A stretch of 64,000 nt of DNA, from assembly GCA_031546705.1 (NCBI GenBank), contig JAVBJX010000026.1, positions 13,604 to 77,603 of the forward strand. Direction: 5' to 3'. The notes under the pieces were generated by a model. The model saw nothing but the letters and a program-made list of their open reading frames with translations, ran no database searches and had not been told where the DNA came from. Source of the DNA: Bacillales bacterium (lineage in GTDB: Bacteria > Bacillota > Bacilli > Bacillales > JAVBJX01). The stretch's first letter is position 1. Every line of letters starts with the position of its first letter. This document shows positions 3,315 through 59,855 of this stretch, piece by piece. A program made the translations under genes and the position numbers.

Positions 3315-4079
3315 TTACTTCTTCATTCCAGTGTAAATATGAACCGCATCTCTTAAAAATTCAGCCGTACCCGGTTGTTCTTTATCATAGTAAGCAGTGA
3401 ATCTTTCATCATCTACATACATTTGGGCAAGCCCTGCATGAGCTTCTTTTGAGTAAGCATCCCAGTAAAAACATAACCATTGACGGTGTAAATCTGCTGC
3501 TTTTTGGGCTAATTCTCCTGCTGGATCACCATTTTTGAACGCTTCGCTAAGTGTTGTAATAACATCATCGGCTAACTGGGTTACGGTATCGTATTCTTCT
3601 TGGGTCATGCCTTTTACTTTTTGATTTGATTTATTTACAGCATTATCCCCGTATTTTTCCCGTACTTCTTTTCCATATTTTTTTTCGTTGTCGTCAACCA
3701 GTCTTTGTTTGAAGCCTTCAAATTTTTCTTTATTACTCATTGTTATTCTCCCTTCTGTTGAAGCAATTGTTTTTTCAACATTGGCTATTAATGAATTTAA
3801 CTGACTTCTTTTTTCGAGCAGTTTTTCATGGTGTTCTTTTAGTGCCTTTGAACTGTCAAAAGATGGTGCTGTGACAATAGCTTTAATACTTTCTAAGCTC
3901 ACACCAAGTTCCCGATAAAAAAGTATTTGCTGTAACTTATCGACTTTCTCTTGACCATAAATGCGATAACCGGATGAATTTATTCTTGTAGGCTGGAGCA
4001 TATCAATTTCATCGTAGTATCGTAATGTTCTTGTGCTAATACCTGCGAGCTTAGCAAGCTTTTGGATTGTGTATTCCAT
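3315..4079 (-). CDS. MerR-family regulator, TipA/Mta-like (N-terminal HTH, C-terminal TipAS-type domain)
   Basis: N-terminus YTIQKLAKLAGISTRTLRYYDEIDMLQP...GYRIYGQEKVDKLQQILFYRELG is the MerR HTH plus coiled coil. The length (254 aa) and C-terminal half are like B. subtilis Mta. Confidence 0.8.
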   Translation of the reverse strand: MEYTIQKLAKLAGISTRTLRYYDEIDMLQPTRINSSGYRIYGQEKVDKLQQILFYRELGVSLESIKAIVTAPSFDSSKALKEHHEKLLEKRSQLNSLIANVEKTIASTEGRITMSNKEKFEGFKQRLVDDNEKKYGKEVREKYGDNAVNKSNQKVKGMTQEEYDTVTQLADDVITTLSEAFKNGDPAGELAQKAADLHRQWLCFYWDAYSKEAHAGLAQMYVDDERFTAYYDKEQPGTAEFLRDAVHIYTGMKK

Positions 4080-8642: not shown

Positions 8643-11585
8643 CTATTTCACAGCATACACGACTAGCTTACTCTTATTTTGTGAGGCATCTATCACCTGA
8701 ACCGAAATAAATGTACCTTTCCTTTGTTTTCCAATATTGAAAGAAAACAGTTGTGTACTAGTAGCTTTTGTTGTATATGTTTTACTTCCTAGTTTGATTA
8801 TTACTTGACTGTTTGCCTCAGCCTTTCCTGATAACAAAGTGCTTTTGGTTGTAAACAAATTAATACTAGCTTGTAATGGTGGTGTGACATCTTTAACAGT
8901 AATTGTTTTTTCAATGGTTCCACCGTCTGTTTCAGCAGATATTGTTACAATGGTTCCTGCTTTTAATAGGGAAGTACTGAAAGAAAATGTTTCTTTATCT
9001 GTTATTTTGGTTGTTCTAAAAATTACATTTCCTATTTTTACTGTAATAATTGCTTCACTTGTCCCACGACCTGTAATCGTTTTACTTACGTCCGTAATTG
9101 GATTGACTTGTAGGAAAGGAGGTTCTTTTACGACAAGTGGATCATATTCTTTTACTGTTCCTTCATTTGTAAAAATTGTATTTGTGGTGGGACCAAGTTT
9201 CATATCCTGATCTTTTTTTGTTGTATCAATAAGGAGTGAGTTTGTGCTTAAGTCAATAAGATTTGCTCTACTCATCTGTTCATTTGTTTCACCAAGAAGA
9301 AGGATATTATTTTTAGAAATGTCAATGCTTGTTACATTAGCTAGATTTGTATGGATGGTTTGATTTGTAGTTTCATAACCTTGTTCCACATTGTAAACGC
9401 CATTGATTCCATCACCAACAACAATTAATTGTTTGTTATCTTCTGTATAGGCAAAACTTGTATCATAGTAGCCTGAAAAATGGAGGTCATGAAGTTTCGC
9501 ACCTGTATCAAGACTTTGAATGTGCAGGTTACGTTGTTCATCATTTTGCAAAGAATAAAGCATAATGGCTAATGATTGGTTTGTTTCATTTATAGCTAAT
9601 TGGTGGATAGACCAGTTAGGAAAATTAAACTTTTGTGTTTCGCTTATATCAGACATATCAAAGTAAACAACGGAACCTTGTGAGTTTCCTGTTATGAGGG
9701 TCGCACTGTCTTGGGTAAATAAATAATCGGTAAATTCTCCTTCTATTTGTGTAACTGTCCAATGTTTATTTACATCCCAAATAAGGATTTGTTGGTCGAA
9801 TAAAAGGGCGACTTTTGTACCATCAGAACTAATTCGTACATTTTTAGGTGTGTCTTCAATATAAGTAGTTGTCGGTAACTTTTCTCCCGTTGTCATATCC
9901 CAAAGAAAAACGTCACTGTTTGTTTCATGAGTAACAGGATCAATTGCTTTGTTTATGGTAACCATCCATTTTCCGTTATCACTTATATCCATTGAAGTTG
10001 TATTTTCTGTTTGTGTCCATATCTTTTTTACTTTTAGTCTATCTTCACGATAGATAGGGTAACTTTTTGCTTTTACTGTAACAATAATAGAATCGCTTTT
10101 TAAGCCAAAATTATCCTCCGCAACTAATTTAAGTTCACTACCTATTTTCGCAGAAATCGGTATAGAAAATGGAACAGTGGAGAGGTCGCTTCCTTTTGGT
10201 GTTGTCGTTGTCAGTGTATGACCATCTGCAAATGTTGCTGTTATTTTACTGTTTGGTGTTGCTTGCCCAGTAATCTTCTCCTCTGTACTAGTAGCGGTCA
10301 GTTGCACATTATATCCATTTGGCAAAACAGCAAATGTAAAACGTGGCAAAGCGTACGAACCAATAGAGATACGCCCATCCGCTGTAACAATTTGCTTTCC
10401 ATTATTTGTAAAAGGAATACTACCATCTACGAACTCAGAAGTTGCTGTAAGATTTCTTTTAAAATGATAATCTTCATAATTATAAATAAGGTCATCTAGT
10501 TTTGCTAGATTTGTAATATTTTTCGTTTGTCCATCAAACATGTTTGCGTTGACTTGTATATTTTTTGTTTCGTTTGCTGTAAATGCTTGTTTTTGTGGTG
10601 TAACAGTTATAGATGAAAATACTTTAAAAAATTCAACTATATAAGTAATTGTGGCAAAAGAGCCATCTAGTTTTTGTAACCCTTCAATTGTCACATTGAA
10701 TGTATCACCATCTTGAATGAGTTGGTCATCTGGGCGGAAAATAATACAATTTCCAATACCAAATCCTTCTTCATTGACATAAAATATCCCATCACTTTGT
10801 CCTTTGCTAAAATTCCATGTTTTGTTATCCCTTGGTCTGGTGAGTGTAACAGAAATATTTTCGGCATGAGGTTGTGTATATAGAGTCGGATTTACAGTAA
10901 CAGACCATGGAAACTGCTTACCAAATGATTCAAGTGGCATATACCCAGCACTTGGAAAAGCAATATAATCATAACGTACAGATTCATTTCGACTCGTATC
11001 AAAAATTTGCATAGCGGTCATAGTATCAGCAAAACCAAATCCTGTTTTTTGTAAATCTGGATTTAAAATCCAGCGACGATGTCCAAGTTCTGGAATATTT
11101 ACTGAGTCGCCATCATTCATATAGCCATCAACGACGGAAGAATAAATGGATGCATATCCTTTTCCGATATTACTAGAGGAGGTAGATTCGTAACCTGCAC
11201 GATAAAATTCATCAGACATCCAAAGCGGTTTATTTGGATGATGGCTAAACTCTCCGCTAATAGCCAAAAGAAGAGCTCCATATTGTGCTTGAACATTTAA
11301 TTGCTCATCTATCTGAATATCATCAGGAAGATTTGCTAAGTAACGAGCAAAATTTGTTGCCTTCAATCCATCTTGTAAGGCGGAGTCATCCAGTTTTCCG
11401 ATAGATGGATTTTTTTCATCTATATGAGGTGTCTCTACATAGATTTGCTTAGAAGTTGGTAATGAGTCTATATATTTTTTTGCAATCTGTTCTTTGGAAT
11501 CATTAACCGCATGAACAGGAGAAGCAAGAGAGAAGGAAATGCTTATTAAAAAAAATAAAATACATTTTTTAAACAAAAAAATCAC
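8643..11585 (-). CDS. large secreted protein: CAP/SCP(PR-1-like) domain + beta-propeller-like repeats + C-terminal Ig-like repeats
   Basis: GTG start with signal peptide MIFLFKKCILFFLISISFSLASPVHA. CAP-type signature GHRRWILNPDLQKTGFGF. The centre has repeated blade-like motifs (ISDNGKWMVT, SSDGTKVALL, FTQDSATLITG). The C-terminus has two ~75-aa Ig-like repeats (TITGRGTSEAIITVKIG..., LLSGKAEANSQVIIKLGSK...). Confidence 0.65.
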   Translation of the reverse strand: MIFLFKKCILFFLISISFSLASPVHAVNDSKEQIAKKYIDSLPTSKQIYVETPHIDEKNPSIGKLDDSALQDGLKATNFARYLANLPDDIQIDEQLNVQAQYGALLLAISGEFSHHPNKPLWMSDEFYRAGYESTSSSNIGKGYASIYSSVVDGYMNDGDSVNIPELGHRRWILNPDLQKTGFGFADTMTAMQIFDTSRNESVRYDYIAFPSAGYMPLESFGKQFPWSVTVNPTLYTQPHAENISVTLTRPRDNKTWNFSKGQSDGIFYVNEEGFGIGNCIIFRPDDQLIQDGDTFNVTIEGLQKLDGSFATITYIVEFFKVFSSITVTPQKQAFTANETKNIQVNANMFDGQTKNITNLAKLDDLIYNYEDYHFKRNLTATSEFVDGSIPFTNNGKQIVTADGRISIGSYALPRFTFAVLPNGYNVQLTATSTEEKITGQATPNSKITATFADGHTLTTTTPKGSDLSTVPFSIPISAKIGSELKLVAEDNFGLKSDSIIVTVKAKSYPIYREDRLKVKKIWTQTENTTSMDISDNGKWMVTINKAIDPVTHETNSDVFLWDMTTGEKLPTTTYIEDTPKNVRISSDGTKVALLFDQQILIWDVNKHWTVTQIEGEFTDYLFTQDSATLITGNSQGSVVYFDMSDISETQKFNFPNWSIHQLAINETNQSLAIMLYSLQNDEQRNLHIQSLDTGAKLHDLHFSGYYDTSFAYTEDNKQLIVVGDGINGVYNVEQGYETTNQTIHTNLANVTSIDISKNNILLLGETNEQMSRANLIDLSTNSLLIDTTKKDQDMKLGPTTNTIFTNEGTVKEYDPLVVKEPPFLQVNPITDVSKTITGRGTSEAIITVKIGNVIFRTTKITDKETFSFSTSLLKAGTIVTISAETDGGTIEKTITVKDVTPPLQASINLFTTKSTLLSGKAEANSQVIIKLGSKTYTTKATSTQLFSFNIGKQRKGTFISVQVIDASQNKSKLVVYAVK

Positions 11586-14825: not shown

Positions 14826-14929
14826 CAGTCTATATAGACGGTAAAAAAGATTTCATGGATCGAACACGAGTAGTTCTAAGGTTTATATTTTCGTTTCAAT
14901 GAAAACAATATTACCGTCTATACAGTCTA
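14826..14929. mobile_element. MITE-like element: 90 bp with 12-bp perfect terminal inverted repeats and a 7-bp direct duplication
   Basis: CAGTCTA [TATAGACGGTAA ...66 bp... TTACCGTCTATA] CAGTCTA. TIRs lie at 14833-14844 and 14911-14922, flanking repeats at 14826-14832 and 14923-14929. A diverged second copy lies at 40605-40711. Confidence 0.7.
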
Positions 14930-18089: not shown

Positions 18090-18425
18090 ATTGGGAATCA
18101 CACGTAAAAAAGAATCGTTGTATTGAAGGAATGAAATAGCTTTCAATACAGATATTATGGCAGTTTGCGAAATTGTTCGGAAAAAGGTTAGGAGAAAATT
18201 TTTAATTAGACAATGAAAAAACTATGACGCTTGCTAGAGGAAAGCTAGGATTTTTTGAAAGAGTATAATGAAAAGTTAGCCCTTGAACTTTCTGCACAAT
18301 AAGTGAAACTGCTATAATATTGGCATTATATGATTCTTGGGTGTTTTAAAAAATGATAGTTTCTTTAATTTTTACTCTCTATCCAGTTACCCAGGATTAT
18401 TTTAGAAAAAGAGGAGGTTATACAG

Positions 18426-22474: not shown

Positions 22475-22560
22475 GATTGTTCTAGGACTTCCTCCCATCA
22501 TTGACGATACCACTTTGTTGAAGTACTTTATGGGTAGACATGCGCTGGAAAGGTGGTTAC

Positions 22561-22875
22561 ATGATGAATGGAAAATCAATTTTTATTGCAGGACATGCTA
22601 AACTTCCACAAGGAATGGCAGCAAAAAGTGTGTATGACTCTCTTACCGTTACATTAGAAATAGATAAGAAATACGGGGTCATCTTGGAAGCGTCTTGTAC
22701 ACTTGTTACAGATCATGGAAAAAAATTTATCAGTTCATTACTACGAGGATGTAGTTTGAAAGATGGAATTGATGAAGCAATAGAACTTGTTCAAGGTAAC
22801 TATAAAGGAAAAGCTCAACACGCATTGATGGCAGCACTACGAGATGTGTATACACAGTATGAAATCATTCATTAG
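22561..22875 (+). CDS. small conserved protein (DUF3870-like, from memory)
   Basis: The ORF is MMNGKSIFIAGHAKLPQGMAAKSVYDSLTVTLEIDKKYGVILEASCTLVTDHG... with a GAAAGGTGG SD. The family label is from recollection only. Confidence 0.5.
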   Translation: MMNGKSIFIAGHAKLPQGMAAKSVYDSLTVTLEIDKKYGVILEASCTLVTDHGKKFISSLLRGCSLKDGIDEAIELVQGNYKGKAQHALMAALRDVYTQYEIIH

Positions 22876-22894
22876 TGAATAGAAAAAGATGAGG

Positions 22895-23004
22895 GTGAGT
22901 GTATAGTTTACTAAAATGTTGGTTTTACAATTTTTTGGTAACCAATCCTAAACATGAGTATGGGTCAATTGGAGTGTTTTTTTTACTTCTTTTGATCCAA
23001 ACTC
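22895..23004 (+). repeat. dispersed repeat copy 1 (loop-conserved hairpin module + terminator-like hairpin module)
   Basis: TTTACTAAAATGTTGGTTTTACAATTTTTTGGTAACCAATCC, then GAGTATGGGTCAATTGGAGTGTTTT...TGATCCAAACTC. Aligns with the copies at 30835, 49681, 56935 and 58623. Confidence 0.7.
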
Positions 23005-23295
23005 CCCGTTCTATAGATTGAAAATTACGCAACTTTTCATAATTAATGTATTTTTGAATGTCTTTCATTTATAGTATTAACTTGACATTTTTTGAATATA
23101 AAATATATTTTTATGATTTTTTGTTCGTAAGTATATAGATATGATGTATTTCAAGAGGAGGAATGAAGATAACAACAAATTACAGAAGGTTAGAATGTTA
23201 AGGAGTTATCTTTTAAAGATTTAAGTATATATGAAAGCGGTTTCAATAAAAATAAAGAAAATTCTGGATGTGTGATGTTTGGAGGAATGGTAATT

Positions 23296-27863: not shown

Positions 27864-27879
27864 TGGCACGATTATTGCT
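27864..27879 (+). promoter_or_regulatory. sigma-54 (-24/-12) promoter of the aldehyde dehydrogenase-patA operon
   Basis: TGGCACGATTATTGCT with exact GG-N10-GC spacing, 46 nt upstream of ATG 27925. Confidence 0.82.
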
Positions 27880-27924
27880 TGTATATACAGATGAGATTTA
27901 TAAAAAATAGAAGGAGGAAGAACA

Positions 27925-29394
27925 ATGAATTTTAAAATGTACATTGATGGTCAGTGGGTAGATGCTAAAAGTGGTAAAACAAAAGATATTTTGAACCCTG
28001 CAAATGGAGAAGTTCTTGCAACAGTAGCTAAGGGTGATGTAGAAGATGCTAGGTTAGCAATTAAAGCAGCAAGAGAAGCATTTGATTCAGGATGTTGGTC
28101 TGATTTAACAACAGCAGAACGTGCGGCGTATTTATTTAAAATTGCGGATAAGCTAGATGAAAAAGCGGCAGAGTTAGCAGAATTAGAAACATTGGATAAT
28201 GGAAAGCCACTTCGTGAATCAGAATATGATCTTGCCGATGCAGCTGCTTGTTTTCGTTATTACGCAGGAATTGTGACAAAGCCAGACGGTCAGACGTATC
28301 ATGTGGGTATGCCAATGCAAGCGATGGTTGTTCGTGAGCCAGTTGGTGTGTGTGGCTTAATTGTTCCTTGGAACTATCCACTACTAATGGGTATATGGAA
28401 AATTGCTCCAGCACTTGCGGCAGGGAATACAATTGTTTTCAAACCAGCAGAAATAACACCTGTTTCATCAATTAAATTGTTTGAAATTATGGAAGAAGTA
28501 GGAATTCCTGCAGGAGTTGTGAATTTAGTTTTAGGAGCAGGATCAAAGGTTGGAAATGAAATTGCAGAAAGTCATGATGTTGATAAAGTGTCCTTTACAG
28601 GTGGAACGGAAACAGGTCGCACGATTATGAAAGCGGCTACAGGAAATGTGAAGAACATTTCGTTAGAGCTAGGCGGAAAATCTCCGAATGTTGTATTCGC
28701 TGATGCAGACTTTGAAACAGCAGTTGACTATGCGTTATTTGCGATTTTCTGTAACCAAGGACAAGTATGTTCTGCAGGTTCTCGTCTACTTTTAGAAGAA
28801 AGCATTTACGATAAATTTATTGAGAGATTAGTAGAAAGAGCAAAACAAATTCGTGTAGGTCCTGGTATGCAAGAAAATGTGGAGATGGGTCCATTAGTAA
28901 GTGAATCCCATATGAAAACAGTACTTGACTACATTGAAATTGGTAAACAAGAAGGAGCAAAACTTGTTTGCGGAGGAAATCGTATCACAAATGACGGCAT
29001 GGACAAAGGCTACTTTGTGGAGCCAACTATTTTTGTTGATACAACACCAAAAATGAGAATTGTTCAAGAAGAAATTTTCGGTCCAGTGCTTGTCGTACAA
29101 AAATTCCGAGATGAGGAAGAAGCTATTAAGTTAGCAAATGACTCTGCATATGGATTAGCAGCAGCTGTATGGACAATTGATGGAGCAAAAGGGCTTCGAG
29201 TAATCAAAAAACTTCGTGCAGGTATTACATGGGTTAATAGCTATCACTTTACGTTCAATGAAGCTCCATGGGGTGGATACAAACAAAGTGGTATTGGTCG
29301 GGGACTTGGCACATTTGGATTTGATGAATTTACAGAAGTTAAACAAATCAATATTAGTACACAAGTAGAACCAGTTGGATGGTTTGAAAATTAA
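27925..29394 (+). CDS. aminoaldehyde (gamma-aminobutyraldehyde/betaine-aldehyde type) dehydrogenase
   Basis: Strong colinearity with B. subtilis GbsA from memory (REPVGVCG.I.PWNYPLL, WKIAPALAAGNTIV.KP.EITP, ELGGK.PN, GQVCSAGSRLL, APWGGYKQSG). The operon partner is a putrescine aminotransferase. Confidence 0.88.
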   Translation: MNFKMYIDGQWVDAKSGKTKDILNPANGEVLATVAKGDVEDARLAIKAAREAFDSGCWSDLTTAERAAYLFKIADKLDEKAAELAELETLDNGKPLRESEYDLADAAACFRYYAGIVTKPDGQTYHVGMPMQAMVVREPVGVCGLIVPWNYPLLMGIWKIAPALAAGNTIVFKPAEITPVSSIKLFEIMEEVGIPAGVVNLVLGAGSKVGNEIAESHDVDKVSFTGGTETGRTIMKAATGNVKNISLELGGKSPNVVFADADFETAVDYALFAIFCNQGQVCSAGSRLLLEESIYDKFIERLVERAKQIRVGPGMQENVEMGPLVSESHMKTVLDYIEIGKQEGAKLVCGGNRITNDGMDKGYFVEPTIFVDTTPKMRIVQEEIFGPVLVVQKFRDEEEAIKLANDSAYGLAAAVWTIDGAKGLRVIKKLRAGITWVNSYHFTFNEAPWGGYKQSGIGRGLGTFGFDEFTEVKQINISTQVEPVGWFEN

Positions 29395-30789
<1,395 letters not shown>

Positions 30790-30834
30790 TAAAAAAGGAA
30801 AATGGGAAAACGTTCCATTTGAATAGTTTTAGCG

Positions 30835-30946
30835 AATAGAAAGGTTTACTAAAACATTGATTCTATAGTATTTTGGCAACCATTCATTATATGAGTTTGG
30901 GACAATCTGGGTGTTTTTTTCACCGACTGTTCCAAACTCTTTTTTT
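30835..30946 (+). repeat. dispersed repeat copy 2; its second hairpin doubles as the patA terminator
   Basis: TTTACTAAAACATTGATTCTATAGTATTTTGGCAACCATTCATT, then GAGTTTGGGACA...TGTTCCAAACTC (30893-30939) with an inner GGGTG/CACC hairpin, followed by T7. Confidence 0.7.
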
Positions 30947-31097
30947 ATTGAATTATATTTTACTATTTTTTCTTCTCAATTAGGTATTTTATGCAGTATA
31001 ATAAATTCATAAAATGTAGGAGAGAGGGATTATACTGTCAGCAAATTGGTTTATCAAAAAAGCATATACCGTTACACTTGAATCTTCTGTTAGTGAT

Positions 31098-37890: not shown

Positions 37891-39546
37891 ATGAAAGCAT
37901 CTGAAACAAATTTTCTTAAATTTCTTCAAGGAACAAAGCAGTTTATTATCCCTATATATCAGCGAACGTATAGCTGGACAATAGAGCAGTGTCAAAATTT
38001 TTGGGATGATATTGTGAGAACGGCAGACCAAAAAATAAAAGGGCATTTTATGGGATCGATTGTTTATATTGAAAGAGGACTATATCAAATTTCTACTGTT
38101 CCTCAATTACTCGTTATTGATGGACAACAACGGATGACTACACTGACATTGTTTCTTCTAGCATTAGGAAAAGTGATTGAAAAACGTGGGAAGTCTTTTA
38201 TTACAAGGAAGAAGATAATGAACTATTATTTGCTTAATAGTGAAGAAGAAAGCCAACTATACAACAAGTTAGTTTTGACAAAACGTGATAAAGACACATT
38301 ATTTCGCTTAATTTCAGATACACCCTTACCAGCAGATTATTCGCAAAAAATATATGAAAATTATTTATTTTTTTTCAGAGAGATAGAAGAAAGCGAGTTA
38401 GATTTGCAACAGTTGTATGAAGGGATTTCTAAATTAATTATTGTTGATATTTCGCTAGATCGTGATAATGATAATCCACAATTAATTTTTGAAAGTCTAA
38501 ATTCTACAGGTTTGGATTTGTCACAATCTGATTTGGTTAGAAACTTTGTATTAATGCAACTTACACAAAGAGAGCAAGAAACTTTATATAATGATTATTG
38601 GTATCCAATGGAGGGAGAGTTTTTTGACCGATTTATTCGAGATTATTTGACAGTGAAACTGAAACGTATTCCAAACATGCAACAGGTGTATACAAGTTTT
38701 AAAGAGTATGTACATCACAATGAGTTGTCTATTCAAGAAATTATTGCAGATATGTATGACTACTCGAATCGATTTATGAAGTTAGTAGAGAAAACAGAAG
38801 AAGATAGACAGTTAAAGCAAGTGTTAGTAGATATTGATTCCTTAAAAGTCGATGTTTCTTACCCTTTTCTGTTGGAGGTATATGCCGATTATGAAAAAGA
38901 AATGATTTCTAAAAGTGATTTTTTGATTATTTTAAAATGGGTAGAGTCATATATTTTTCGCCGTTCTGTATGTGGTTTACCAGCAAATTCGTTAAATAAA
39001 GTTTTTGCGACACTTCATAAGGAAATGGATAAAACACATTATATGGAGGGTATGCGGGAAATGTTTCTAATGAAACGTTTGCAGACACGATTTCCAACCG
39101 ATTCGGAGTTTGTAAAAAGTTTTAAGGAAAAAGATATGTATCATTCCAAGCATCGGCACTATGTACTACGAAAGTTAGAGAATTTTAATCGGAAAGAACT
39201 TGTTTCGATTAAGGAATATACAATTGAACATATTATGCCACAAAATAAAGAATTATCAGCGGAGTGGAAAGAAGATTTAGGTGAAGATTGGAAGGAAGTT
39301 CATTATGCTTATTTGCATACGATTGGAAATTTGACGTTGACGGGATATAATTCTAAGCTAAGTGATCGCCCATTTAAAGAAAAACGAGATATAGAAGGTG
39401 GATTTGCTGATAGCCCACTAAGATTAAATGAAGGACTTGGGAGATTAGAAAGATGGAATGAAGAAGAGATTACAAAACGTGCCGATATGTTGGCGGAAAA
39501 AGCATTGCTAGTTTGGAATTATCCATATAAGAGACAGAGAGGATAA
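37891..39546 (+). CDS. DUF262/DUF1524 two-domain nuclease (GmrSD-family type IV restriction-like)
   Basis: N-terminal ParB/DUF262 motifs IPIYQRTYSW and DGQQRMTTL. C-terminal His-Me/DUF1524 motifs EHIMPQN ... HTIGNLTLTGYNSKLSD. 551 aa, single gene. Confidence 0.8.
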   Translation: MKASETNFLKFLQGTKQFIIPIYQRTYSWTIEQCQNFWDDIVRTADQKIKGHFMGSIVYIERGLYQISTVPQLLVIDGQQRMTTLTLFLLALGKVIEKRGKSFITRKKIMNYYLLNSEEESQLYNKLVLTKRDKDTLFRLISDTPLPADYSQKIYENYLFFFREIEESELDLQQLYEGISKLIIVDISLDRDNDNPQLIFESLNSTGLDLSQSDLVRNFVLMQLTQREQETLYNDYWYPMEGEFFDRFIRDYLTVKLKRIPNMQQVYTSFKEYVHHNELSIQEIIADMYDYSNRFMKLVEKTEEDRQLKQVLVDIDSLKVDVSYPFLLEVYADYEKEMISKSDFLIILKWVESYIFRRSVCGLPANSLNKVFATLHKEMDKTHYMEGMREMFLMKRLQTRFPTDSEFVKSFKEKDMYHSKHRHYVLRKLENFNRKELVSIKEYTIEHIMPQNKELSAEWKEDLGEDWKEVHYAYLHTIGNLTLTGYNSKLSDRPFKEKRDIEGGFADSPLRLNEGLGRLERWNEEEITKRADMLAEKALLVWNYPYKRQRG

Positions 39547-40460: not shown

Positions 40461-40604
40461 ATCAACTAATTTTTTGCGTTATACTTTTTTTGATGTAGAC
40501 TGAGGAAGCTTCCAATATCTTAACAAAGATGGAACAATTGGGGTGTTTTATCTCTTTGTCCCATCCTCTTTTTTGGGCAATAATTTACACGAAAAAATAT
40601 TGTA

Positions 40605-40711
40605 TATAGAAGGCAAAAAAGATTTCAACTGATTTTGAGCTATTCGCATCAAACATAAGTAGTTTCAAGGTTTATATTTCCGCATCACTGAAAACAATAT
40701 TACCGTCTATA
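40605..40711. repeat. second, diverged copy of the 14833-14922 TIR element
   Basis: TATAGAAGGCAAAAAAGATTTCA...AAGGTTTATATTTCCGCATCACTGAAAACAATATTACCGTCTATA. The left TIR is degenerate, there is no flanking duplication, and it has a 17-nt indel relative to copy 1. Confidence 0.65.
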
Positions 40712-40956
40712 TAAATTGATTGCGATGTATTCGTGGTGTACAGCTATTTTTGTTTTTACGGTGTTAGCCATTATTTTTATTCAACAACAATTTTACCACA
40801 TATTTACCCCCTTTTTTCGGAGATTTTTACACATCTCTTCATATATAATAAATACAAAGAAAATAATTCGAAGTGTCTCCCCCTTGAGATATTAGAAGTA
40901 AAAGAAGGCTGGACGAAATTCGGTTTTAATGATTTCGTTCAGCTTTCTTTTACTGT

Positions 40957-41292
40957 TCAAGATGTTTTGCTTTTGATAAAGAATAAACCCCACCATACAA
41001 GTAAAAATAAATAACCTGTGACTGTAAAAATAGACCACATAGACCCTTGTTGTAAATGGATAACTAAATGTTCAAATTCATTTGTTCCTGCTGGTCGTGC
41101 AATACCATTTAGTAAACTAATTACTGGAATAGTTAAAGTAAAAAGAATGGTTATATTAGACATTGTTTTCATTTTTTTACGAGTAACACTAAATAATCCA
41201 GCTCCTAATGTCATTAATAACGATAACCAATAAATTACCCAAAACCAATTAGGTAAACTTTCCCAGTACATTTTCTCACCCTTCTTAATCAT
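40957..41292 (-). CDS. small integral membrane protein (3-4 TM)
   Basis: Hydrophobic segments. Its start overlaps the stop of the upstream GDYXXLXY gene by 8 nt. Confidence 0.5.
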   Translation of the reverse strand: MIKKGEKMYWESLPNWFWVIYWLSLLMTLGAGLFSVTRKKMKTMSNITILFTLTIPVISLLNGIARPAGTNEFEHLVIHLQQGSMWSIFTVTGYLFLLVWWGLFFIKSKTS

Positions 41293-49120: not shown

Positions 49121-49564
49121 ATGGAAGTTAAAATAGTGAAGAATAATAAAAAAGATTTCTTGGATTTATTACTTCTAGCAGACGAACAAGAAAGTATGGT
49201 TGATAAGTATTTAGAACGAGGAGAATTATTTGCCTTATATGATGGTGATTTAAAAAGTATTTGTGTTGTAACAAAAGAAACAGATACAGATTATGAATTA
49301 AAAAACTTAGCGACATATGAAAAGTATCAAGGTCAAGGATATGGCAGTTATTTAATAAAGTATATATTTGAACACTACAAAGGCAAGTGTAAATCTATGT
49401 TTGTAGGAACAGGTGATAGCCCTCGGACAATTCCTTTTTATCGGCATTGTGGATTTCAAATTTCTCATAGAGTAGAAAATTTTTTCATTGAAAACTATGA
49501 TAATCCTATATTTGAAGATGGCGTTCAACTTGTTGATATGGTTTATTTGAAAAAAGATTTTTAA
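49121..49564 (+). CDS. GNAT-family N-acetyltransferase
   Basis: Acetyl-CoA motif YQGQGYGSYLIKYI. The ATG directly abuts the upstream stop. Confidence 0.8.
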   Translation: MEVKIVKNNKKDFLDLLLLADEQESMVDKYLERGELFALYDGDLKSICVVTKETDTDYELKNLATYEKYQGQGYGSYLIKYIFEHYKGKCKSMFVGTGDSPRTIPFYRHCGFQISHRVENFFIENYDNPIFEDGVQLVDMVYLKKDF

Positions 49565-49619
49565 TAATCATTTCCAGAATCAAAATACTATTTGAGTTAG
49601 TGTCCTATTCATAGACACA

Positions 49620-49670
49620 AAAATATCTGATAAAATCTGTTTCTCTTGATTTTGTCAGATATTTTTATTT
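49620..49670 (+). terminator. intrinsic terminator after the GNAT gene
   Basis: AATATCTGATAAAATC...GATTTTGTCAGATATT 16-bp stem (1 mismatch) plus a T-run. Confidence 0.75.
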
Positions 49671-49680
49671 TAGGATCTAT

Positions 49681-49887
49681 CTGAGTTTGGGATTAGTTCA
49701 CTAAAACATTGATTTTATGGAATTTCTGCAATCATTCATTTCACGGGTCTTTGACATAATTATTTTTTTGGTGTTTTTATGAAATGAATGGTACACTAAA
49801 ACATTGATTTTACAGGATTATGATAACCATTCATTTCATGAATTTTGGACGATTGGGGCAAAATGCCCCTTTTCGTCCAAAACTCAG
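49681..49887 (+). repeat. composite repeat: two loop-conserved hairpin modules nested inside an outer inverted repeat
   Basis: The outer arms are CTGAGTTTGG...CCAAAACTCAG. Copy 3a is TTCACTAAAACATTGATTTTATGGAATTTCTGCAATCATTCATTTCAC. Copy 3b has a 14-bp perfect stem, ATGAAATGAATGGT (49779-49792) with ACCATTCATTTCAT (49826-49839), around the loop ACACTAAAACATTGATTTTACAGGATTATGATA. Confidence 0.75.
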
Positions 49888-49958
49888 TTTGACACAATCA
49901 GTCACCTACAATTAGAATATAACTATAAATATTACAAGTAAGAGGTGAGTAAGCCTTC

Positions 49959-50399
49959 ATGAAAATTAGTAGTAGATTTAGTGTAGCCACGCATATTTTA
50001 GCCCTTCTTCATTTAGAAAAGAAAACGTTGTGTACATCAGAATGGATAGCTAATAGTGTGAATACAAATCCCGTGGTGATTCGGAGAATACTTGGACAAT
50101 TAAAGAAAGCAGAAATCGTTCAAGTCCGCTCAGGTGTTGGGGGATCTTTTTTAATGAAGGAATTAGCAGAAATTACATTGCTAGATGTGTATCACGCAGT
50201 TGAAGTTGTCGATGAGGGTGAACTTTTTCAAGTACATGAAGGAACAAGTGACGAGTGTCTTGTTGGGGCGAATATTTGCTCTGTATTATCTCCGATTGTT
50301 TGTCGTGCCCAATCAACAATGGAACAAGTGTTGGCAGAAATAACAATGGAAGAAGTGGTTACGGATTTAGAAAATAAATTAGGAGGGTGTACTGAATAA
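49959..50399 (+). CDS. Rrf2-family transcriptional regulator with a three-Cys motif
   Basis: N-terminal wHTH (SRFSVATHILALL...NPVVIRRILGQLKKAEIV) and C100-x6-C107-x7-C115 (DECLVGANICSVLSPIVC). Confidence 0.85.
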   Translation: MKISSRFSVATHILALLHLEKKTLCTSEWIANSVNTNPVVIRRILGQLKKAEIVQVRSGVGGSFLMKELAEITLLDVYHAVEVVDEGELFQVHEGTSDECLVGANICSVLSPIVCRAQSTMEQVLAEITMEEVVTDLENKLGGCTE

Positions 50400-56835: not shown

Positions 56836-56885
56836 ATGTATACAAAAAAACGAGCTAACAAGATGGCTCGTTTTTTTGTATACAT
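56836..56885. terminator. bidirectional terminator (20-bp perfect inverted repeat)
   Basis: ATGTATACAAAAAAACGAGC taacaagatg GCTCGTTTTTTTGTATACAT. Confidence 0.8.
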
Positions 56886-56934
56886 CAAGCTAATTGTGGG
56901 AAATACTGGTGCAGAAGTTTTTTGAAGAGTTTTT

Positions 56935-57000
56935 AGTGAAATGAAAGTTTCATCAAAATGATGATTCTACAGGATTTTGGCAACTATTCATTTTACGAGG
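56935..57000 (+). repeat. dispersed hairpin repeat copy 5 (diverged)
   Basis: GTGAAATGAAAGTT-TCATCAAAATGATGATTCTACAGGATTTTGGC-AACTATTCATTTTAC. The stem is retained with one indel. Confidence 0.6.
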
Positions 57001-57039
57001 TTTTTGCAATCGAGGTGTATTTCCCCCCTAACTCTCTTA

Positions 57040-57660
57040 TTAGTTTCTACATACATAATCGGCTATTTCTACAGGTTTTTCGGTACACAGATAGTGATCT
57101 TCACCTTTCCAATATCTTTCTTCATATTTCTTCATACGGTCTTCCATGCTACCAATATACGTATCTCTCTTCAAGACCCGTTCATACCTTGTTTGGCGTG
57201 AGCAGTCAAGGTATATAACAAAATTAAAAAAACTTCGCCATTCTTTTCGCTGTAAAAAAATTCCTTCTATGATGCAAATAGTGTTCTTCTCTAAGAAAAA
57301 AGATTGCTCGGTAAGCGAATCATTTTCTTTATTATAGAAAGGAAGGTGAATATTTGTATTTCCACATTTAAGTGGTTGGAATAACTTTTCTTGGAGCATG
57401 GCAATATCCCATTGTAATTGATAATACTCATACCAACTTTCAAAACCTGTGTTATACCTCTCATCTGCTCGGGTAATGTGATTATCCATATGAATAACAC
57501 AAATAGAAATATTTTTCGCTGCAAAAAATATTTCTAAGTCATGAGTAATTGTAGATTTTCCTGCACCGCTAAGACCATCTAGCCCAACAATAAAATGGGT
57601 GGATGTATCTTTTTTCTCTGTGTAGCAATGTAAGATTTCAGAAGTTAGTACAGTTATCAT
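57040..57660 (-). CDS. P-loop kinase of the uridine kinase/phosphoribulokinase-like family
   Basis: Walker A GLDGLSGAGKST. 206 aa. Substrate not assignable. Confidence 0.65.
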   Translation of the reverse strand: MITVLTSEILHCYTEKKDTSTHFIVGLDGLSGAGKSTITHDLEIFFAAKNISICVIHMDNHITRADERYNTGFESWYEYYQLQWDIAMLQEKLFQPLKCGNTNIHLPFYNKENDSLTEQSFFLEKNTICIIEGIFLQRKEWRSFFNFVIYLDCSRQTRYERVLKRDTYIGSMEDRMKKYEERYWKGEDHYLCTEKPVEIADYVCRN

Positions 57661-57776: not shown

Positions 57777-58151
57777 TTATTTTAATGAGAATCCTTCATT
57801 GAAGTTTGTATATATTGTATTAGTAGATAAGAGCTCATGTATATATCGCTCTACTTTTCCTTTGTCCCGTTCCGTTAGTTGACCGAATTTTATTAGCGTT
57901 TCAATGTCGTCTGGTATATGTAACTTTGATTCTTCATCGCCTCCTGTAATAAGCCAATCAACGGTAACACCTAATGCACGGCTTATTAAAAATAAGTTTT
58001 CCGCTGAAACATTAACAACTCCACGCTCTATTTTGCTTAGAGCTCCCTGAGTAACCCCTGTTGAAGCGAACAAATCCTCGTGAGTTAAATTTTTCTTTTT
58101 TCTTGCTTGTTTTATCCGTTCTCCTACCAAATTTTTAAAATCAATTAGCAT
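57777..58151 (-). CDS. XRE-family HTH regulator (cI-like, 124 aa)
   Basis: HTH KNLTHEDLFASTGVTQGALSKIERG plus a ~55-aa C-terminal domain. GGAGG SD. Confidence 0.8.
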   Translation of the reverse strand: MLIDFKNLVGERIKQARKKKNLTHEDLFASTGVTQGALSKIERGVVNVSAENLFLISRALGVTVDWLITGGDEESKLHIPDDIETLIKFGQLTERDKGKVERYIHELLSTNTIYTNFNEGFSLK

Positions 58152-58174
58152 AGTAAATACCTCCAGTAAATCAA

Positions 58175-58283
58175 ATTCTTATAAGAATAGTTTCGTTGAC
58201 TTGATTCTTGTGAGAATATATAATGATAGTAATAAGATTAGTAAACTTCATTACTTTTATACTATCATATTTTTGCTTATAAG
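58175..58283. promoter_or_regulatory. divergent control region: consensus promoter plus CTTATAAG palindromes
   Basis: 14-bp perfect palindrome ATTCTTATAAGAAT (58175-58188). Promoter TTGACT (58196-58201), 17-nt spacer, TATAAT (58219-58224), reading toward 58311. Second CTTATAAG at 58276-58283. Confidence 0.6.
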
Positions 58284-58310
58284 ATATAGGAAGAAGGAGG
58301 GGAAAATAAT

Positions 58311-58493
58311 ATGGGACTGACAGATTTTGGTAGGGATGTAAAAAAACGGTTAATTGAGTTAGGAATGACACAACGAGAACTGGCAGAAAAGATTGGAACA
58401 AGTAGTCAATACTTAAACGCAATTTTAAATGGAAGAAAAACAGGCGAAAAGTATGTGCCTAAAATTATTCAATTTATGGATGAAGAGAAATAA
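58311..58493 (+). CDS. small XRE-family HTH protein (Cro-like, 60 aa)
   Basis: HTH GMTQRELAEKIGTSSQYLNAILNGRK. GGAGGGG SD. Confidence 0.75.
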   Translation: MGLTDFGRDVKKRLIELGMTQRELAEKIGTSSQYLNAILNGRKTGEKYVPKIIQFMDEEK

Positions 58494-58622
58494 CTTACAA
58501 AGATCTAATTGAAAAATATATGGGCATTACAAATAGCTTACATGCTCTATACAGAAGCGGTGAAGTATAGAGCTTATGATAAAAATAAGGTTAGGAAATA
58601 AATCGGTTTGAAGGGGTTTTAA

Positions 58623-58683
58623 TGTTGAGGATTGGTTCACTAAAACATTGATTTTACAGGGTTTTAGTAACCAATTCTCGACA
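58623..58683 (+). repeat. dispersed hairpin repeat copy 4 (15-bp stem, conserved loop)
   Basis: TGTTGAGGATTGGTT (58623-58637) pairs with AACCAATTCTCGACA (58669-58683): 13 Watson-Crick pairs plus 2 G-U. The loop is CACTAAAACATTGATTTTACAGGGTTTTAGT. Confidence 0.75.
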
Positions 58684-58727
58684 GTAGTAGAGGGTTTTAT
58701 GGTTATTATATGTTCAGAAATATGCAC

Positions 58728-59855
58728 TTACCCTTTCTTCATCCAATGCCCCAAATCATTTTTCTTCAACACATCTTCCAATAATTGTGGCAATAAGTTC
58801 GGTGTACAACCAAAACAAGGAATTCCTATTCTTCCTAATTTCTGGGCGTTTCCTTCATGATATACAGGAATTCCCTTATCAGAAAGTGCTAATAAAGCAA
58901 TTACCTTCACCCCAGATTCGTGCATTTCTCTCATCCTCTTTAACATCCCAGCTTGATTTCCAAACTCATATAAATCAGAAACCAAAATAAAAATCGTCTT
59001 TAGTGGGTCTGTAATGAACGGCTCACAATATTGTAGAGATTTATGAATATCCGTTCCACCACCAAGTTGAATACCAAACAACATATCAACAGGGTCGGCT
59101 TTGCTTTGTTCTGTTAAATCAACTACCTCTGTATCAAAAACAACGACATGTGTTTTTAATGCAGGTAAACTTGCAAAAATTGATCCAATAATCGAAGCAT
59201 AAATTGCTGATTCTGCCATAGAGCCACTTTGATCAATATCTAAAATAATTGTCCAGTGACTTTGTTTTCTTGCTCGATCAAAGAAATAAAAGCGTTCAGG
59301 AATAACAATTTTTCTTTCCTTATCATAATTTTTTAAATTACGATTAATCGTGTATTTCCAATCAATACTTTGTGCTCCACTTGGTAAAGGGGAGTGACTT
59401 TTTTTATTTATTGCACCTTTGACGGCTTGACGAATATCATTTTCTAGTAGTTGTTTAACTTCTTCCACAAGTAATCGGACTAATTCTCTTGCACTATCTT
59501 TTGTTTTTTCAGGAATTTTACCTTTTAATGAAATGAGTGTAGCGACCATTTCAATACTAGGTTTGACACTACTTAGCATTTCAGGTTCAAAGAGTAGTTG
59601 GGTTAATCCTTTTCGTTCAATAGCATCGTTTTGAATGACGGAAACAACATCGGTTGGAAAAAAGGTGCGTACATCTCCAAGCCATTTTGTTAATGTGATG
59701 GAAGATTTCTCCAGTCCTCCTTGATGGCTATCATCATAAATTGCAGATAGTGCTTCATCCATAATTTGTTCTTCAGCAGTTAATGAATAATGCCCTGAGA
59801 AATTTTTCTCAACTGCTTGTCCAAGAATTAATCGCCAACGTTTTGTTTGTTCCAC
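58728..59855 (-). CDS. VWA-domain protein (YehP/CoxE-like)
   Basis: GTG start 6 nt after GGAGGG. ~190-aa helical N-terminal region, then a VWA domain with MIDAS residues DIDQSGS, GGGTD and VSD. Confidence 0.85.
   Translation of the reverse strand: MEQTKRWRLILGQAVEKNFSGHYSLTAEEQIMDEALSAIYDDSHQGGLEKSSITLTKWLGDVRTFFPTDVVSVIQNDAIERKGLTQLLFEPEMLSSVKPSIEMVATLISLKGKIPEKTKDSARELVRLLVEEVKQLLENDIRQAVKGAINKKSHSPLPSGAQSIDWKYTINRNLKNYDKERKIVIPERFYFFDRARKQSHWTIILDIDQSGSMAESAIYASIIGSIFASLPALKTHVVVFDTEVVDLTEQSKADPVDMLFGIQLGGGTDIHKSLQYCEPFITDPLKTIFILVSDLYEFGNQAGMLKRMREMHESGVKVIALLALSDKGIPVYHEGNAQKLGRIGIPCFGCTPNLLPQLLEDVLKKNDLGHWMKKG

Follow-up and report, generated by a model that had tools for sequence, protein, structure and literature searches.

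A previously unnamed two-hairpin intergenic repeat in an origin-proximal chromosome segment of a Bacillaceae species

The interval 49681-49887 of a 64-kb stretch of DNA from a Bacillales bacterium (contig JAVBJX010000026.1, assembly GCA_031546705.1; the whole stretch is referred to here as the window) contains hairpin-forming sequences that recur at other sites in the same stretch. This raises the question of whether they are a structured RNA selected by the host, a single-stranded DNA element moved by an enzyme, or a small interspersed repeat. An earlier reading made from the letters alone (the sequence-only reading) had described six hairpins with a conserved loop of 31-33 nt and covarying stems, all at gene 3′ ends, and had taken them for a selected structure, with REP/RAYT-type elements or a small-RNA/terminator family as candidates. 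The analysis identified a previously unnamed intergenic repeat with six copies (c1 to c6) at five loci of the window, all on the + strand; the interval 49681-49887 corresponds to c3 and c4, which form a tandem pair arranged head to tail. The repeat is real, far beyond chance. It is probably a lineage-specific, non-autonomous small interspersed DNA repeat composed of two hairpin modules and decaying in place.

A search with the 22-nt core ACTAAAACATTGATTTTACAGG, allowing up to three mismatches, found four matches in the window, all on the + strand, against none expected by chance. A covariance model (CM) was built from the six hairpins and run without filters on both strands of the window; the sequence-only reading had itself proposed such a model, for a scan of the whole genome and relatives. 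Exactly six copies were recovered, at 58620-58686, 49776-49842, 56933-56999, 30829-30895, 22891-22957 and 49681-49747, with scores of 63-84 bits (E ≤ 1e-12), which agrees with the earlier count, places and strand. Apart from the copies and their reverse-strand images nothing exceeded 25 bits; the best such match (24.8 bits, 40894-40957) is an ordinary bidirectional terminator and was rejected as a family member. The sites given earlier were right, but the ends were not, as the family sequence continues on both sides. The full unit is about 115-135 nt in length and modular, with a 5′ extension, a hairpin 1 (HP1) of about 60 nt and a terminator-like hairpin 2 (HP2) of about 47 nt. The census covers six copies in one 64-kb window and, because there are only six, every statistic on the family is weak.

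The 5′ extension, TTTGAA(G/T)AGTTTT(T)A, was found upstream of the left arm in c2, c5 and c6, and in partial form in c4. HP1 consists of an outer stem of 14-15 bp, a middle stem ACTAAAAC/GTTTTAGT, an apical stem of 3 bp and a loop of 6 nt. In c6, the best-preserved copy, the middle stem forms 8 bp beyond the outer stem and the apical stem pairs TTG with CAG, leaving only the loop ATTTTA; all 26 pairs of the model are formed, three of them G·T. What had been described as a loop of 31-33 nt therefore pairs with itself in the best copy, and since the core is part of a helix, the proposed anatomy of a conserved loop on a covarying stem is wrong. The middle stem is mostly retained in c1, c2 and c5 (in c5 by changed pairs, with C-G and T-A in place of the T-A and C-G of c6), the core being largely unpaired in c3 and c4 only. 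HP2 (GAGTTTGGGAC...GTTCCAAACTC) lies directly 3′ of HP1 and is formed by an outer stem GAGTTTGGGACAA/TTGTTCCAAACTC plus an inner stem that is short and GC-rich. Copies c1, c2 and c4 have a complete HP2, c3 has only its left half and c5 a decayed form; c6 lacks a full HP2 and carries only a remnant that probably derives from it. The arms of HP1 are of two subtypes: A, GTGAAATGAATGGTT/AACCATTCATTTCAC, in c2 to c5, and B, TGTTGAGGATTGGTT/AACCAATTCTCGACA, in c1 and c6. A 15-mer of the core, AAACATTGATTTTAC, shares 12 of its 15 positions with the right arm of subtype A. No conserved open reading frame was found in the element; the core has stops in two frames, and the start contexts vary from copy to copy. 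A promoter inside the element was also considered and rejected, since neither TTGATT in the core nor TTGAAG in the 5′ extension has a consistent -10 partner.

Pairing of the outer stem, scored in a fixed register, was 15/15 in c6, 14/15 in c4, 13/15 in c5, 10/15 in c2, 8/15 in c1 and 7/15 in c3, the last being the chance level. The arm sequences reported earlier were right (14 of 14 paired in c4; 15 of 15, two of them G·T, in c6; 14 pairs around one bulged base in c5). The broader statement that the arms stay complementary holds for these three copies, which keep a long outer stem, but not for c3, in which the left arm has been lost, nor for c1 and c2, in which the stem is half decayed. The compensatory changes are genuine and occur in both hairpins. 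Both sides have changed in 8 of the 26 pairs of HP1 and in 4 of the 13 pairs of the HP2 outer stem, where the observed covariation score was reached by 3 of 500 shuffles. For HP1, 77.6% of the paired cells were filled by a pair, against 35-48% when the 3′ partner was slid by 1-3 columns; this whole-structure value was, however, barely above that of column shuffles (74.2%; 31 of 500 as high). The covariation signal came mainly from the comparison of the two arm subtypes and from the three intact copies. Among members of one subtype, identity is about 80% in the right arm and about 50% in the left arm, indicating that changes within a subtype mostly break the helix, and each subtype comprises an intact member plus decayed ones. 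With half of the copies lacking the outer stem, a left arm only half conserved within subtypes and shuffles nearly equal to the data, the earlier preference for a selected structure over neutral repeats did not hold up. The data are consistent with a structure that the source element requires for propagation and that inserted copies then lose by decay.

The copies were then placed among their neighbouring genes; all the features of the repeat that follow are on the + strand. The 5′ extension of c1 (GTGAATAG...; 22876-22893) starts directly after the TAG stop codon of a DUF3870 gene (22540-22875). It is followed by a subtype B HP1 (22894-22954; CM 63.3 bits) with a decayed left arm and 8 of 15 outer pairs, the middle and apical stems being retained, and by an HP2 (22956-23004) with 12 of 13 outer pairs, the inner stem GGAGTG/TACTTC and a T-rich loop. 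Just upstream of c1, the final codons of the DUF3870 gene (22864-22874) read AATCATTCATT, which equals 11 nt of the c3 subtype A right arm; this may be the remnant of an older copy that now provides the C-terminus of the gene product, or a coincidence, and the CM detected no copy there. At c2, the 5′ extension TTTGAATAGTTTTA (30818-30831) begins 29 nt past the stop codon of a putrescine aminotransferase gene (29410-30789). Its subtype A HP1 (30832-30892; CM 75.9 bits) has a partly decayed outer stem (10/15), and its HP2 (30893-30946), with a 12-bp outer stem and the inner stem GGTG/CACC followed by TTTTTTT, has the form of an intrinsic terminator.

The tandem pair lies beyond the ordinary intrinsic terminator of a GNAT gene (49620-49672, + strand), a non-family structure that gave only a weak, generic hairpin match to the CM; c3 and c4 are therefore located past the end of that transcription unit. 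In c3 (49681-49778; CM 63 bits) GAGTTTGGGATTAG, a sequence similar to the left arm of HP2, has taken the place of the HP1 left arm; the subtype A right arm and the core have stayed intact, only the left half of HP2 is present, and no stable fold is predicted (z = +2.1). The HP1 of c4 (49779-49839; subtype A, CM 82.5 bits) has a perfect 14-bp outer stem, a degenerate middle stem and a mostly unpaired core; its HP2 (49840-49885), with 12 of 13 outer pairs and the inner stem GGGGCA/TGCCCC, is followed by TTTT. Directly after it comes the promoter-like site of an Rrf2 gene (TTGACA-18-TAGAAT, 49889-49918). Upstream of c5 there is likewise an ordinary terminator, that of a pirin gene (A-run, hairpin and T-run at 56846-56878, + strand), which is not a family member and matched the CM weakly as a generic hairpin. 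The 5′ extension (TTTGAAGAGTTTTTA) and subtype A variant HP1 of c5 span 56921-56996, with 14 outer pairs around one bulged base (CM 77.2 bits). They are followed by a decayed HP2 remnant (56998-57039), recognized by alignment and without a stable fold, that abuts the stop codon of a convergent kinase-like gene (57040-57660, - strand). The 5′ extension (TTTGAAGGGGTTTTAA) and subtype B HP1 of c6 (58607-58683; CM 83.5 bits) are followed only by the remnant GAGGGTTTTATGG. This copy lies 130 nt past a small + strand helix-turn-helix (HTH) gene (58311-58493) and 45 nt from the stop codon of a - strand VWA gene (58728-59855). The small HTH gene belongs to a divergent pair of XRE-family HTH genes beside c6 (57777-58493; 124 aa on the - strand and 60 aa on the + strand), a region that also contains a strong promoter-like site, TTGACT-17-TATAAT (58196-58224).

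Each copy is located downstream of a + strand gene, in agreement with the sequence-only reading; c5 and c6 are between convergent genes and nearer the stop codon of the - strand gene, and three of the five loci are beyond, or away from, the terminator of the upstream gene. None of the approximately seven divergent and eight minus-minus intergenic regions of the window contains a copy. The bias towards 3′ ends had a p of ~0.09 and that of orientation a two-sided p of ~0.06; with five independent loci, neither is individually significant. Promoter-like sites of downstream genes were found just past the element at 23082, 30973 and 49889. Between the aminotransferase stop codon and the promoter-like site at 30973 the scan flagged no terminator other than c2 HP2 with its seven T residues. 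This is the sole terminator-like structure for the aminotransferase gene and, judged by its sequence, a plausible terminator at this one copy. The earlier suggestion of a terminator family is plausible only here: c1 and c4 have TTTT after the inner hairpin only, and c3, c5 and c6 have no terminator feature.

These observations most likely place the repeat in the ordinary class of small mobile repeats that includes bcr1, RUP/BOX and SPRITE, and not among new kinds of regulatory RNA. Propagating source elements, presumably moved by some enzyme, would need the hairpins, probably in vivo as a single strand in the + sense, which would explain why the subtypes carry different yet complementary arms. 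Inserted copies would not be maintained and would decay by point changes and by loss of arms or of HP2. Insertions would survive only where harmless, that is, downstream of genes, from the stop codon or terminator to the next promoter, or between convergent genes, and in the orientation that gives the terminator-like HP2 the direction of the upstream gene. A copy might occasionally be co-opted, as c2 HP2 and its T run may have been for the aminotransferase gene. The solo, truncated and tandem forms (c6 without HP2, c3 without its left arm and half of HP2, and the c3-c4 pair) favour a mobile repeat. Published families of small repeats likewise show two stem-loops, compensatory changes, an excess at gene 3′ ends and between convergent genes, and restriction to a single lineage (PMC3184786, PMC3049150, PMC3446304).

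Several points weigh against this interpretation. No empty site and no second genome that would demonstrate mobility were found; no consistent target-site duplication flanks the copies; and there is no transposase among the ~40 open reading frames of the window scanned against Pfam. The small number of copies, with the weak statistics that it entails, is a further one. The 5′ half of the core (19 nt, CACTAAAACATTGATTTTA) has a mean pairwise identity of 82%, against 61% for its pairing partner, and is better conserved than both arms, which hints at a sequence-specific constraint beyond simple decay. A direct repeat, GGGTTTTA, does flank c6. It was rejected as a target duplication because it matches internal family sequence, the likeness of the 5′ extension to the left arm of HP2 being the better explanation.

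The strongest of the alternatives is that the copies are a structured RNA selected by the host in the 3′ untranslated region (3′-UTR), acting as a terminator, as a stabilizer against 3′ exonucleases or as a 3′-UTR-derived small RNA with a functional core, ACUAAAACAUUGAUUUUAC; it nevertheless appears unlikely. All the copies are co-oriented with the upstream + strand gene, and c1 and c2 start 0-29 nt past a stop codon and must therefore be transcribed. The terminator form of c2 HP2, the presence of compensatory changes together with an excess of G·T over A·C on the sense strand, and the better conservation of the core than of the arms would also be expected of an RNA. There is even a precedent in B. 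cereus, in which co-transcribed bcr3 repeats correlate with a longer mRNA half-life (PMC3446304). However, c3/c4 and c5 lie past the terminator of the upstream gene, and for c5 and c6 the nearer 3′ end is that of a convergent gene, to which they are antisense; such positions are odd for a 3′-UTR RNA but usual for tolerated insertions. The outer stem has been lost in three of the six copies, one of them lacking the left arm entirely, and just one HP2 is followed by a T run. Further, the flanking genes (encoding a DUF3870 protein, an aminotransferase, a GNAT protein, a pirin and an HTH regulator) share no function, and the element matches no Rfam family.

A somewhat less probable alternative, also unlikely, is a single-stranded DNA hairpin element that is moved by an HUH (Y1) enzyme, like REP/RAYT or the palindrome-associated elements derived from IS200/IS605, and that forms on the lagging-strand template. 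The strand asymmetry of the helices bears on this, as it does on the preferred interpretation. On the + strand, the intact helices contain 104 Watson-Crick, 9 G·T and 2 A·C pairs (one-sided P = 0.03), consistent with the earlier proposal of a structure formed by RNA or single-stranded DNA. With one exception among the RNA and DNA comparisons, the + strand is predicted to fold as stably as the - strand or more so. For c6 the values were -37.6 versus -28.0 kcal/mol as RNA and -16.0 versus -10.9 kcal/mol as DNA; for c1 as RNA, -36.2 versus -19.1 kcal/mol; and for c1 HP2 as single-stranded DNA, -7.2 versus -4.8 kcal/mol. The exception is c4 as RNA, for which the - strand is slightly better (-47.6 versus -44.6 kcal/mol). 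In these predictions the excess of G·T pairs and the better + strand folds suggest that the single-stranded form is in the + sense. The window is origin-proximal and its GC skew is positive, which makes the + strand the leading-strand sequence and the template of the lagging strand. Under this explanation, the one shared orientation follows from hairpins forming on that template, to the right of the origin; all six copies are indeed on the + strand, even at the two convergent-gene sites, where transcription sets no preference. The true ends, with no clear terminal inverted repeats and no target duplication, are also as this class predicts. The orientation statistic is nonetheless weak (p ~0.06), and since most genes of the window are on the + strand, orientation by replication is confounded with that by genes.

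REP sequences are imperfect palindromes of ~20-40 nt with a GTAG-like tetranucleotide at the 5′ side; they often occur as inverted pairs, and the RAYT gene is flanked by such repeats. The present element resembles REP/RAYT and IS200/IS605-derived elements in its strand-specific hairpins, in a uniform orientation compatible with the lagging-strand template, and in lacking terminal inverted repeats at its true ends and target duplications. It differs from REPs in that its hairpins are AT-rich and two to three times longer (HP1 ~61 nt, HP2 ~47 nt; 60 and 47 nt being much more than a REP), in that its left arm is preceded by TTTTAG, TTTTAA or TTTTAT and never by GTAG, and in that the copies are direct, with no inverted (REPIN) pairing, the only adjacent pair being head to tail. 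The two hairpins are unrelated to one another, unlike the left-end and right-end hairpins of IS200/IS605, and no Y1 or RAYT gene was found in the window. The REP/RAYT-type candidate of the sequence-only reading accordingly fails on size, motif and pairing, and the RAYT/IS200-type transposase that it suggested looking for was absent from the Pfam-scanned frames of the window, as were other insertion sequence genes and integrases. A broader form of the same idea, held to be just as doubtful, is a strand-specific DNA or RNA hairpin type new to Bacillaceae, oriented by replication and moved by an HUH-type or other enzyme that recognizes the 19-nt half-core, in effect an AT-rich, two-module analogue of REP/RAYT. 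To our knowledge, REP/RAYT-like systems are barely known in Firmicutes; if orientation follows replication rather than transcription, the repeat would point to a REP/RAYT-like single-strand mechanism in that phylum.

Transposition as a cut-and-paste MITE (a transposable element of the miniature inverted-repeat type), with the arms of HP1 serving as terminal inverted repeats bound as double-stranded DNA and the subtypes deriving from different parent insertion sequences, is improbable. The size and intergenic location are typical of MITEs, decay after insertion would be expected, and c4 and c6 have perfect inverted repeats of 14-15 bp of two sequence types. The family sequence continues, however, beyond both arms, as the 5′ extension on one side and HP2 on the other, which suggests that the arms are not its termini, and no target-site duplication was found consistently. 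Covariation is seen in the middle stem and HP2 as well, and if the sites were recognized as double-stranded DNA, an asymmetry between G·T and A·C would not be expected. CTGAGTTTGGGA and TCCAAAACTCAG bracket the c3+c4 composite, only a weak version of them occurring at the other copies.

That the copies are operator sites of a regulator, bound at the well-conserved core or at three related 15-mers (inverted left arm, core and right arm, the core 15-mer and the right arm of subtype A agreeing at 12 of 15 positions), is very improbable, as they lie at gene ends and not at promoters, no divergent promoter region containing one, the genes around them have unrelated functions, and the element is far larger than an operator and has a second hairpin. 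Sites for dif/Xer, CodY, Rex or sigma-54 and domains of group II introns were dropped because the sequences do not fit. Integron attC sites have an R''/L''-L'/R' architecture with RYYYAAC...GTTRRRY and are found at the 3′ ends of small promoterless cassettes beside an integrase; this identity was also rejected, since the arms here have no such core sites, the adjacent genes are large, of housekeeping or catabolic function and equipped with promoter-like sites of their own, and the window contains no integrase.

The window corresponds to an origin-proximal part of the chromosome of a Bacillaceae species: dacA, a T-box leader with serS, a deoxynucleoside kinase gene, tadA and the large signal recognition particle (SRP) RNA (scr) follow the order seen at 10-31 kb of a B. 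cereus-group chromosome. SerS shares 82-83% identity with its B. cereus-group counterpart and at most 83% with any database protein, and the closest database protein to the aminotransferase, from a Brevibacillus, is no more than 83% identical, which indicates an isolated lineage. Rfam 15 at its gathering thresholds identified only the SRP RNA and a T-box in the whole window, leaving the repeat unmatched, and a permissive Rfam scan of 49560-49960 gave only chance matches to miRNAs and snoRNAs (≤21 bits). The exact 22-mer core was found once in 185,579 species-representative genomes (596 Gb), in a Clostridia metagenome-assembled genome (CALZID010000006.1). There, an exact match of 23 nt within 3400-3459 lies in a promoter-like setting (TTGATT-17-TAAAAT) upstream of a gene starting MKTLLEKAEKNNIAVGA; with no arms and a CM score of 17 bits, it was rejected as a chance or unrelated match.

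A degenerate 35-nt pattern that fits five of the six copies had no match in metagenome and viral contigs. A loose 20-mer gave at least 120 single matches in metagenome contigs; among the 80 loci examined none had the hairpin, and the best of them (30 bits) was unrelated on inspection. BLAST of the c3-c4 region against plasmids and phages returned chance fragments of 24-31 nt only. In particular, blastn at word size 11 against 72,556 plasmids (7.3 Gb) gave no B. cereus-group match, nor did the CM match a 108-kb syntenic part of the B. cereus-group chromosome. A literature string search with the core sequence found no paper. With Rfam, plasmids and phages, the literature and B. cereus DNA all giving no match, the earlier statement that this is not a named family stands. 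Beyond the assembly, public sequence of the strain consists of short Logan contigs from run SRR23967706, of which two, both inside the window, were recovered. One of them, SRR23967706_36710, aligns to 27878-30899 (the aminotransferase region) and ends 4 nt past c2 HP1, at the start of HP2, which may reflect branching of the assembly graph at a repeated sequence.

The closest described relative in kind is bcr1 (PMC3184786, PMC6542083, PMC3446304), a repeat of ~155 bp of the group A bcr elements of B. cereus (Okstad 2004, Klevan 2007 and Kristoffersen 2011, via PMC3184786 and PMC6542083). In those accounts bcr1 resembles the present repeat in having a host of the same family, in being small, intergenic and lineage-restricted, and in having two independent stem-loops with compensatory changes, a likeness in kind and not evidence of homology. 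Individual copies of both have repeatedly lost stability, and bcr1 often lies in UTRs. In contrast, no sequence similarity to bcr1 was found, the organism is outside the B. cereus group, and the TTTAT direct repeats flanking bcr1 have no consistent counterpart, TTTAT bordering c4 only on its left and c2 and c6 only on their right. By the criterion of PMC6542083, a member of a bcr family matches the consensus with ≥75% identity across ≥50% of the length. The plasmid blastn, the search for the core 22-mer in representative genomes and the CM run on the 108-kb region showed no similarity to bcr1-bcr18; bcr1, 4, 6, 10, 13, 16 and 18 occur on plasmids (PMC6542083), the families confined to chromosomes being tested by these searches just indirectly.

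For HP2 and the positional bias, the closest match is the pneumococcal SPRITE (PMC3049150), which is also AT-rich, is ~105 nt in length and forms a long duplex that can precede a T/U-rich tract. SPRITEs are likewise enriched near gene 3′ ends and between convergent genes, have no clear target duplication or matching insertion sequence, and have sometimes been suggested to be co-opted as terminators (PMC3049150). They differ in host and sequence, and in consisting of a single 18-bp duplex plus a U-tract, whereas here the terminator-like hairpin is a second module, with a T run in one copy (PMC3049150). The pneumococcal BOX/RUP elements and the enterobacterial BIMEs share with the repeat a modular make-up with absent, truncated or tandem modules, tightly folded predictions and decaying copies (PMC3049150, PMC3184786). 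However, BOX/RUP have terminal inverted repeats that pair with each other and target duplications, and in BIMEs, GC-rich REPs of 35 nt form mosaics with alternating orientation (PMC3049150, PMC3184786); the present repeat shows none of this.

A second, unrelated small repeat occurs twice in the window, at 14831-14922 and 40603-40711 (+ strand), the genome thus carrying elements of this sort. The two copies are ~86% identical over 64 nt and are bounded by the inverted repeats TATAGACGGTAA...TTACCGTCTATA, the copy at 40603-40711 having an insertion of 17 nt. It folds better on the - strand (-28.7 kcal/mol, z = -6.0), has no Rfam match, and looks like another MITE-like family. The gene content of the window also differs locally from that of the B. 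cereus group. Between 8300 and 34600, dnaX-ybaB-recR, which follow the SRP RNA in that group, are replaced by other genes. These are a gene for a secreted-type protein of 980 aa with CAP, beta-propeller-like and Big_6 domains (8643-11585, - strand) and then ~23 kb of catabolic modules, several of them duplicated, with sigma-54 activators, amino-acid permeases, class-III aminotransferases, aldehyde dehydrogenases, an arginase-family enzyme and a CoA-transferase/acyl-CoA dehydrogenase pair. The permease paralogues at 18406 and 26333 are 92% identical in DNA. Further on, a gene for a GmrSD-type (type IV, modification-dependent) restriction endonuclease (37891-39546) is followed, at 39.6-41.0 kb, by an AT-rich, gene-poor region with short open reading frames only.

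On present evidence, this is a real and unnamed family, another example of a well-known class of small repeats, with no new mechanism. It matters mainly for annotation. The family can pass for terminators, small RNAs or short open reading frames, and may break short-read assemblies. At c2 it illustrates how a repeat could donate a terminator to a gene, and it marks a Bacillaceae lineage that has no close relative in the databases searched.

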